From sequence record NC_054916.1: a stretch of DNA of 64,000 nt. One strand, written 5' to 3'. The notes beneath the pieces are model-generated. The model did no database searches. It was not told the origin of the DNA and saw only the letters and a list, made by a program, of their open reading frames with translations. This document shows positions 1 to 33,177 of the stretch, piece by piece (position 1 is the stretch's first letter; each line of letters begins with the position of its first letter). Made by a program: the position numbers and the translations under genes. This stretch comes from Escherichia phage vB_EcoM-G28.

Positions 1-154
1 CATCCTTTGAATACACCCTTTTGTAATTTGTATTGCTTGGGATAAAATTCGCTCAAAATGTTATTATTTGCTAAAATTTCAAAATGATTCACCAATTTAT
101 TTTTAATAGTTTTTGGCGAAAAATAGAGATATTCGAAAAGCTGTGTGTCTGTCA

Positions 155-742
155 TCATTGCATTCCGATTACGAAAAACTGTGGACGAGTAATACCACCA
201 ATACAACATTTAATATTACAGCAGCAGTGTACAGTGTCAATATGGACACTATAAATCTTATCCATATCAGGAGATTTGACAGGCTCATCAATTATATACA
301 AAATTCGCGAAAGCGATAAACCTCTGAACTTACTTCCTTTATTACCAATAAAACTGCGTACAGAATCAGTAAATAAACGAAAACGTATATCATCATTAGA
401 ATAACGCGAAAATTCCTTTTTGATGTTATTTGCAGAAATTTTAGCATAAGCTGAAGTATTAGAAAGAACAATAACTGTTCCGCCATCATACAACCAATTA
501 GCAGCGAAGTTAGTCACAGCAATTGATTTACCGGATTGACGTCCACCATCTAGTCGAAGTGTGCAATACTGTTTAAGTAAGTCTTCAAATGGCGGGATAT
601 ATTCGTTTTTACAAATTTCTTCTACTCTAGCATCAGAATGGTGTGTAAAAGCATTCATCAGGGATAGATAAGGACCAGTTAAAAATGTTCTCATTTTGTT
701 CTCTCTAGGTTTGGGCCATTCCATGGCGCATGAATTGTCCAT
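155..742 (-). CDS. Hypothetical P-loop NTPase-like protein (Walker A DGGRQSGKS, Walker B-like ILYIIDE); true start probably the internal Met at 694
   Basis: Six-frame ORF; Walker A/B motifs read directly from the translation; sits in the ipII/ipIII-equivalent slot beside e. Cys-rich odd C-terminus (HCCCNIKCC) could indicate a frame problem. Confidence 0.45.
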   Translation of the reverse strand: MDNSCAMEWPKPRENKMRTFLTGPYLSLMNAFTHHSDARVEEICKNEYIPPFEDLLKQYCTLRLDGGRQSGKSIAVTNFAANWLYDGGTVIVLSNTSAYAKISANNIKKEFSRYSNDDIRFRLFTDSVRSFIGNKGSKFRGLSLSRILYIIDEPVKSPDMDKIYSVHIDTVHCCCNIKCCIGGITRPQFFVIGMQ

Positions 743-835
743 TTCTGTATTTACCCATTACCGCACTTGGGCTCGACCTTATTACAGGTTGGCGGGAATC
801 CCTTATAGAATCATAAGGTCCAGGTTGTTCCCATA

Positions 836-1309
836 TTATTTGAACGATTTAACGTACTGAATAGAACCTTTACTATTTACAAAGGCAATTTTACCATTTT
901 TATTATACATGGTAGCAGTACGTTGATAGCCATAAGTTTGTTTACCAGATTGATAACCAACTAATGCGAAATTATCTTCACCCATTTTATTCTGTTTAGC
1001 GCGAATGCGTTCATGACCATGTGCCATAAGAACCTTAGCATCACCAGTTGCAATGGATCGACGAGTTTTTTCATCTTCAACTGTATTAACAAAGTCGTCA
1101 AATGAATCAAATTTAGCATGAGATTTATTATACAATTTTCCATCTACTGCATAATTATATCCCTGTACATCCATCTCAACTTCTGTACCATCATCCAATA
1201 CAGCAGTGATTTTTTGACCTTTTTTAAATTTCAAAAGATCAGTAAAAGATTCAGCAATAATTTGAGAATTAATAGCTGCTTCAGTGATAAATTCTTGATA
1301 TGTTTTCAT
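836..1309 (-). CDS. Internal head protein (IP family) with N-terminal capsid-targeting sequence MKTYQEFITEA
   Basis: N-terminus matches the T4 IP capsid-targeting sequence (MKTYQEFIAE) including an I-x-E gp21 cleavage motif; position next to e equals the T4 ipIII/ipII locus; length 157 aa differs from my recollection of T4 IPII/IPIII. Confidence 0.65.
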   Translation of the reverse strand: MKTYQEFITEAAINSQIIAESFTDLLKFKKGQKITAVLDDGTEVEMDVQGYNYAVDGKLYNKSHAKFDSFDDFVNTVEDEKTRRSIATGDAKVLMAHGHERIRAKQNKMGEDNFALVGYQSGKQTYGYQRTATMYNKNGKIAFVNSKGSIQYVKSFK

Positions 1310-1363
1310 ATATTTCCTTTAAATATTTTAATTAGCAATTTGTCTCTTCAAGCAACTGTGAAT

Positions 1364-1393
1364 ATACTATCACAATTCTAGGAGAAAGTAAAC
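1364..1393 (-). promoter_or_regulatory. Early-type sigma70 promoter (-35 GTTTAC, 18-nt spacer, -10 TACTAT) upstream of the IP gene
   Basis: Reverse complement reads GTTTAC...TAGTAT with canonical spacing; same motif recurs upstream of other minus-strand early genes. Confidence 0.5.
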
Positions 1394-1397
1394 AACT

Positions 1398-2366
<969 letters not shown>

Positions 2367-30036: not shown

Positions 30037-33177
<3,141 letters not shown>

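Follow-up and report, generated by a model that had tools for sequence, protein, structure and literature searches.

We identified the open reading frame that lies beside an internal-protein gene in the window (the whole 64,000-nt stretch of the Escherichia phage vB_EcoM-G28 genome analysed here, NC_054916.1) as the ortholog of the T4 early gene vs.8 (NP_049732 / UniProt P13318; PHROG 1488). Taken as a whole, the data are best explained by a vs.8 ortholog whose 179-aa product is a P-loop ATPase of the ASCE (RecA-like) division, with one domain only and related to the ATPase domain at the N-terminus of the large terminase gp17, a reading that we hold at a probability of roughly 0.85. A preliminary description had noted this frame, with its DGGRQSGKS and ILYIIDE motifs, next to the internal-protein gene, and the ORF list confirmed it. 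The translated frame matched phrog_1488 with an E value of 2.8e-79 (profile positions 2-177 of 177, from residue 19 of the 195-aa version), and BLASTP against T4 vs.8 gave 2e-136, with ~98% identity from Met-17 on and a poor alignment, including an indel, before it. Using tblastn, vs.8 was detected in 1008 phage records, nearly full length in 1006 of them, at identities down to ~35%. When 1.84 billion representatives were searched exhaustively with the profile, only 50 family members came up, all of 66-259 aa. The T4 gene and its window counterpart share the motifs, a downstream vs.7 with overlapping stop and start codons and an upstream RNA leader, and differ in the upstream gene, which is denV in T4 and ip4 in the window. 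The gene is already known, in kind and in detail, and has already been described as a terminase-like ATPase. A distant relative (E = 2e-9), without an RNA leader, was found in a 163-kb phage genome (PP397179.1; 2840-4516), again near a glycyl-radical (vs.6-like) gene and with an HNH-like gene in between. The features of the locus are collected in Table 1.

Table 1 Features at the vs.8 locus of the window (nucleotide positions of the window; residues of vs.8 in the numbering of the 179-aa protein).
Feature	Position	Strand	Remarks
vs.8 ORF, long reading	155..742	-	195 aa; from the ORF list
vs.8 coding sequence, most likely start	155..694	-	179 aa; ATG 694-692, TGA 157-155
vs.8 Walker A	residues 50-57	-	GGRQSGKS
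vs.8 Arg-Gly	residues R124-G125	-	
vs.8 Walker B and catalytic Glu	residues 131-137	-	ILYIIDE
vs.8 variable Cys-rich loop	residues ~157-168	-	
vs.8 conserved final strand		-	FFVIGMQ
16 additional N-terminal codons in the 195-aa reading	695..742	-	contains H5, H6 and the Shine-Dalgarno-like GAGAG (~705-701)
vs.7, 5' part	1..158	-	gene cut by the window edge; first 53 codons present; phrog_2049
ip4, T2-type internal virion protein	836..1309	-	DUF7412, E 5.7e-96; phrog_3155 'internal virion protein', E 6e-102
Lysozyme e	1398-1892		
Structured RNA leader	713..834	-	~120 nt between ip4 stop and vs.8 start; covariance model R1
Leader P1	832-828/798-794	-	
Leader hairpin within P1	818-813/806-801	-	
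Leader P3	792-790/757-755	-	
Leader hairpin H4 within P3	789-776	-	ACCUGUAAUAAGGU
Leader conserved loop within P3	775-758	-	CGAGCCCAAGUGCGGUAA
Leader pseudoknot	823-821/747-745	-	5' strand inside P1; 3' strand after the linker beyond P3
Leader hairpin H5	742-740/732-730	-	T4-like-specific
Leader hairpin H6	727-724/718-715	-	T4-like-specific; just before the Shine-Dalgarno region

Conservation was assessed over 19 vs.8 homologs, down to 40% identity. Residues D49-G-G-R-Q-S-G-K56, R113, R124-G125, I134-I135 and E137-P138 were invariant among them, and D136 was nearly so (at least 90%; D/E). The Walker A pattern GxxxxGK[ST] is represented by an invariant GGRQSGK[ST], and Walker B with the catalytic Glu by L-x-I-I-(D/E)-E-P, in which E137 never varies; the set of catalytic and nucleotide-binding residues is intact. 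The AlphaFold2 model built from the homolog alignment (pLDDT 81.6, pTM 0.83) shows a five-stranded alpha/beta P-loop fold with the central parallel sheet of RecA-like proteins, the nearest structures being the RecA1 domains of SF2 helicases and the ATPase domain of T4 gp17; Foldseek also matched the packaging ATPases of P74-26, D6E, phi29 and phi28. The earlier assignment as a P-loop NTPase-like protein agrees with both the motif conservation in the 19 homologs and the predicted fold, and the fold on which that assignment had been made to depend is supported by AlphaFold2 and the structure search alike. Similar uncharacterized proteins of 140-175 aa were found in BFVD in many large myophages, including jumbo phages.

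Compared with the SF2 helicases whose RecA1 (DEAD) domains it resembles (Mfd, DDX1, DDX20), vs.8 has no second RecA domain, Q-motif, motif III or motif VI and, being a single 179-aa domain without these elements, is not a helicase on its own. We also consider it very unlikely that the ORF encodes a nucleotide or nucleoside kinase-type P-loop protein (dNMP kinase, zeta toxin or PhoH-like). Its small size, generic matches to Pfam AAA_14 and AAA_30 (E 0.03-0.3) and two 'PhoH-like' names among the weak BFVD matches would suit such a protein, but it comes closest in structure to RecA-like domains of helicases and terminases, the Glu right after the Walker B Asp is a hallmark of ASCE proteins, and no kinase family was matched in Pfam, NCBIfam or PHROGs. 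NCBIfam gave no match of any kind for vs.8. The preliminary description had entertained a fragment of a conserved T4 gene, for example a truncated kinase; a conserved T4 gene it is, but a complete one, and neither a fragment nor a kinase. A PADLOC match to HerA (E 0.033) was at chance level and was rejected, and marginal PDB matches of the family profile (E ~0.07) to a DNA translocase coupling protein and the SRP receptor were left unused.

Taken alone, the link between the vs.8 and terminase sequences is weak. PHROG phrog_2 'terminase large subunit' was matched with an E value of 1.5e-5, and Pfam Terminase_6N (PF03237) scored 12.5 bits against a cutoff of 22, below the gathering threshold. 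Alignment by hhalign with the gp17 of the window (31342-33174) and with an 18-member gp17 alignment gave E values of 2.5e-3 and 5.6e-4, with probabilities of 12-30%. It placed vs.8 residues 50-150 on gp17 residues 160-269 with Walker A, R-G and Walker B in register: ILYIIDEP fell on AMIYIDEC of gp17, the invariant terminase-type Arg-Gln of the P-loop (R52-Q53) on R162-Q163, and R124-G125 on R245-G246, in the gp17 block VRGNSFA. The Arg-Gly of vs.8 lies 13 residues before the catalytic Glu. In terminases, the Arg-Gly acts as a trans arginine finger, the Arg lying ~11 residues before the catalytic Glu (R139 in P74-26). By analogy, R124 is a possible trans arginine finger, and if R124-G125 does serve as one, Vs.8 would hydrolyse ATP only as an oligomer or together with a partner, which might be vs.7 or gp17.

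Several parts of gp17 are absent from vs.8. The gp17 ATPase domain (PDB 2O0H) comprises 360 aa within a 610-aa protein, compared with 179 aa for the whole of vs.8, and gp17 is late whereas vs.8 is early. The C-terminal RNase H-like nuclease domain was not found in vs.8, which ends at residue 179, after the fifth strand, whereas PF17289 is present in every gp17 homolog. Nor does vs.8 have an equivalent of the coupling motif, TTT 285-287, which never varies among the gp17 homologs: the corresponding strand of vs.8 ends V-I-G-(M/T/V)-Q, and the lid subdomain and the conserved adenine-binding Tyr-Gln are likewise missing.

The true start of vs.8 is most likely Met-17 (ATG at 694). All vs.8 homologs start with M-(R/K)-x-(F)-L-T, and this Met is invariably position 1 of the profile. 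Upstream of it, the frame stays open for anything between 3 and 54 codons, depending on the homolog; T4 and the window differ in frame there and their identity falls, and across genera the upstream nucleotides are kept while the frame is not. Since the homolog starts, the variable upstream frame and the difference in frame between T4 and the window all favour Met-17, the shorter of the two versions put forward in the preliminary description is to be preferred to the 195-aa version. The purine-rich, Shine-Dalgarno-like GAGAG stands 7-11 nt before ATG 694, and the Met-1 ATG (742-740) lies inside the conserved RNA hairpin H5; the segment 695..742 is most likely an untranslated leader. The T4 record annotates a vs.8 of 219 aa, compared with 195 aa for the longest ORF of the window and 179 aa for the conserved protein, and the sequence comparisons indicate that the T4 product, too, would have 179 aa. 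In RefSeq T4 (NC_000866, 64253-64912), the 219-aa vs.8 begins within the conserved RNA leader.

At the other end of the protein, a Cys-rich C-terminus had been reported. The stretch HCCCNIKCC is indeed present, but it belongs to a variable, low-confidence loop: it is not conserved among the 19 homologs, and residues 160-168 form the sole segment with pLDDT <50. The C-terminal frameshift suspected earlier is not indicated, because the terminal strand FFVIGMQ is conserved.

We then compared the gene neighbourhoods. The preliminary description was right that one internal-protein gene of non-T4 type stands beside e, namely ip4 (its counterpart is annotated ipIV in T2) where T4 has ipII and ipIII; it had gone on to read the next ORF as unexpected cargo in the hypervariable internal-protein slot, a claim that did not survive comparison, as T4 vs.8 occupies the same place and the gene is present, with conserved synteny, in more than 1000 genomes. 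The order is e, ipIII, ipII, denV, vs.8, vs.7, vs.6 in T4, e, ipIV, a disrupted vs.8, vs.7 in T2, and e, denV, ip4, vs.8 in teqhad; the same placement of vs.8 was seen in Gaprivervirus SP18, Marfavirus Potts1 and Winklervirus Vettismorki, and also in Tequatrovirus. The variable block is the segment between e and vs.8, which holds ipIII-ipII-denV in T4, ip4 alone in the window and in T2, and denV with ip4 in teqhad. As in T4, the conserved vs block (vs-regB) opens with vs.8, which lies outside the variable internal-protein slot. No denV was detected by tblastn in the whole 64 kb, where e is followed directly by ip4, without ipII or ipIII, matching the T2 layout; the phage probably has no endonuclease V at the e-ip4 locus. 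A scan of window positions 1-2000 for sigma-70 promoters and terminators gave results at chance level.

That a novel NTPase cargo gene was swapped into the hypervariable internal-protein locus, possibly for an injected product, is highly improbable. The neighbour ip4 does differ from T4 ipII/ipIII, but T4 has vs.8 at the same position relative to vs.7, and more than 1000 genomes show conserved synteny. The T-even internal proteins are defined by an N-terminal MKTYQEFI leader and are packaged late. While ip4 starts with MKTYQEFITEA, the N-terminus of vs.8 is MRTFLTGPYL, without this capsid-targeting leader, and none of the internal-protein PHROGs was matched by vs.8. The time of synthesis also speaks against cargo: the comparison of early with late expression proposed in the preliminary description can be made for the T4 ortholog, which, like T4 vs.7, is early as both RNA and protein (Wolfram-Schauerte et al. 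2022, PMC9697503, supplementary tables). The record is hereby corrected, in that no new NTPase cargo occupies the slot beside lysozyme.

The ATG of vs.7 (158-156) overlaps the stop codon of vs.8 (ATGA; ATGATG at 158). A 4-nt or 1-nt overlap of the vs.8 stop with the start of the vs.7 homolog (ATGA or TAATG) occurs at ~30 loci, and a detectable vs.7 homolog is present in 28 of these. The vs.8 gene is translationally coupled to vs.7, and vs.7 looks like its obligate partner. The vs.7 family carries a repeated G-P-F-x-G motif, and a Pfam search with it returned no match.

The dN/dS values of vs.8 against its homologs were 0.10-0.28, indicating that purifying selection acts on the gene, which changes much faster than gp17 (~40% versus ~85% identity between the same genera). 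In T2 (LC348380.1, 3155-3700), vs.8 has lost 2 nt near codon 31 and another 2 nt near codon 114 and otherwise shows only 5 mismatches to the window; it is a pseudogene there, of which the record annotates a 110-aa fragment only. The vs.8 of SV76 is also frameshifted. Because it is frameshifted in T2, vs.8 is dispensable. A decaying, functionless remnant of a duplicated gp17 might be read into these two frameshifts and the fast evolution, but it is scarcely credible: the dN/dS values are low enough to speak against it, the active-site residues are invariant, the frame is intact in nearly all 1008 records, and the protein is detected early in T4 infection.

A phenotype of the T4 protein has been published. 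In an AlphaFold 3 screen against EcAvs2, Evans et al. (Nat Commun 2026; PMC13601566) came upon T4 vs.8, which they described as an ATPase-like protein not yet characterized, with Walker A and B motifs and homology to the ATPase domain of terminase, a link supported by PSI-BLAST and AlphaFold 3. [quoted passage not shown] Ksap1 and Ksap2, two further non-terminase activators of Avs2, are likewise described there (PMC13601566) as small phage proteins whose fold resembles the terminase ATPase and which trigger EcAvs2; the paper reports them as restricted to other phage taxa. Each of Vs.3-Vs.8 has also been tested against type IV Thoeris, where Vs.3 (TadIV-1, an anti-Thoeris sponge) alone was active (PMC13243611, 2026).

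The main rival to the ATPase reading of vs.8 is a non-catalytic terminase mimic, that is, an early decoy of the ATPase domain that occupies host sensors or other proteins recognising ATP-bound terminase, and for which nucleotide binding matters and hydrolysis does not. We regard it as rather unlikely. A decoy would suit a protein made long before gp17, from a fast-evolving gene that lies among accessory and anti-defence genes such as vs.3, but the catalytic Glu and the Arg-Gly are invariant and would not obviously be needed for pure binding. To our knowledge, no sensor is inhibited by Vs.8. The predicted terminase-like fit in the EcAvs2 pocket, and the anti-defence origin raised by the authors, point towards mimicry, but co-expression activated EcAvs2 and did not block it (PMC13601566), and type IV Thoeris was not inhibited by Vs.8 (PMC13243611). 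Activation of EcAvs2 by Vs.8 would be harmful to the phage. According to the ATPase reading, which we prefer, Vs.8 would bind and probably hydrolyse ATP; alone it would neither translocate nor cut DNA, and it would act as an accessory factor of the early host-interaction phase, outside the packaging machine.

The interval between ip4 and vs.8 contains a structured RNA leader. Its fold was derived by hand and then tested for covariation on 22 T4-like sequences; RNAalifold on the raw MAFFT alignment yielded two invariant hairpins only. Over the 22 sequences, 87.5% of cells were paired in the fold versus 22-48% with slid partners, the covariation score was 0.233 versus at most 0.058, and changes on both sides occurred in 9 pairs versus 0-3. 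Covariation supports P1 and P3 as well as the pseudoknot. The pseudoknot helix shows compensatory changes in 5/6 pairs, one position being C-G, A-U, U-A or G-C, and a compensatory change also separates T4 (CCTCAT/ATGAGG) from the window (CCTTAT/ATAAGG). From its G-U pairs, the RNA is assigned to the same strand as vs.8. The covariance model R1 found the leader in the window with 89.8 bits (E ~1e-24), as one copy in 64 kb. The leader is nearly identical in T4 despite the other upstream gene there (denV), and its blocks are conserved among genera whose Vs.8 proteins are only ~40% identical.

Several variants of the leader were observed in T4-like phages. The pseudoknot is longer in SP18-type phages than in the window, and two T4-like contigs have two tandem leader copies upstream of vs.8 (L023, 5051-5305; L062, 8966-9220). 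In Klebsiella phage Potts1 (Marfavirus; L005, 2015-2570), gp22 (117 aa) lies between the RNA element and vs.8, and the 3' hairpin block GUGCCAAGGAAYGGCCC is duplicated, with one copy still directly before vs.8. A GTTTAC in the RNA linker was considered as a T4 early -35 box and rejected, as a matching -10 is not conserved; we read it as conservation at the RNA level.

The core ACCUGUAAnAAGGUC...GCGGUAA, with P1, P3 and the pseudoknot flanks, also occurs in unrelated phage contigs without vs.8. Non-T4-like copies were found in nine contigs, often in or near tRNA clusters and on the same strand; in one of these the core begins a few nucleotides after a tRNA-Ser gene. Searched by blastn, the core matched 444-764 GenBank phage records, including rV5-like phages, Campylobacter phages and Klebsiella phage KpCHEMY26, and among the matches listed from these records none had an RNA feature under the core. 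The non-T4 copies were described by eye, the automatic helix finder being too noisy for a formal count; on a gapped alignment inspected in this way, all 24 aligned copies seem able to form a 2-bp helix within the core, G-[C/U/G]...[G/A/C]-C.

Comparison with known RNAs gave no counterpart among those considered. The isolated element was without a match in Rfam 15, even at E <=10, ARAGORN recognised neither a tRNA nor a tmRNA in the leader, and the core was not found in the paper texts searched, although a description may exist beyond that literature. Hammerhead, twister, hatchet, pistol, HDV-like and theta ribozymes, tRNA-like elements, the SRP Alu UGUNR motif and known riboswitches were all rejected by sequence or by Rfam. 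Like the theta ribozymes, some non-T4 leader copies lie just after tRNA genes, and with the HDV-like ribozymes the leader shares the nested double-pseudoknot order (P1 5', P2 5', hairpin, P1 3', further domain, P2 3'). HDV-like ribozymes require a catalytic cytosine at the first J4/2 position (PMC10879173). The leader instead has U at this position, the first base after the P4-like domain, and after the P3 3' strand the 22 sequences continue with UUUACA or UUACA; its conserved bases, moreover, fall within the P4-like domain, a part that HDV-like ribozymes can do without. On account of this U and these conserved bases, the leader is not a member of the HDV-like family, and none of the Rfam HDV models matched it.

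We tentatively propose, with somewhat less than even confidence, that the leader represents an undescribed, widespread class of phage structured RNA, in which a nested double pseudoknot is built around a three-way junction with the conserved core ACCUGUAAnAAGGUC...GCGGUAA. On this proposal, T4-like phages carry the element joined to the 5' end of the vs.8-vs.7 message, while in rV5-like, Campylobacter, Klebsiella and jumbo phages it stands by itself, within tRNA gene clusters or close to them. Its role might be that of a stable non-coding RNA, of an element for processing or self-cleavage, or of a regulator acting on the early terminase-like ATPase. More unusual than the vs.8 ORF, the leader deserves a separate look and holds the real potential for discovery: T4 ranks among the best-studied phages, yet the element is unannotated in hundreds of GenBank phage records. 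For vs.8 itself, the live question, given the triggering of Avs2, is why T4-like phages keep an early and catalytically intact miniature of their packaging ATPase coupled to vs.7, and the probable true start, the retained Arg-Gly and the coupling to vs.7 make the question of its role easier to test.
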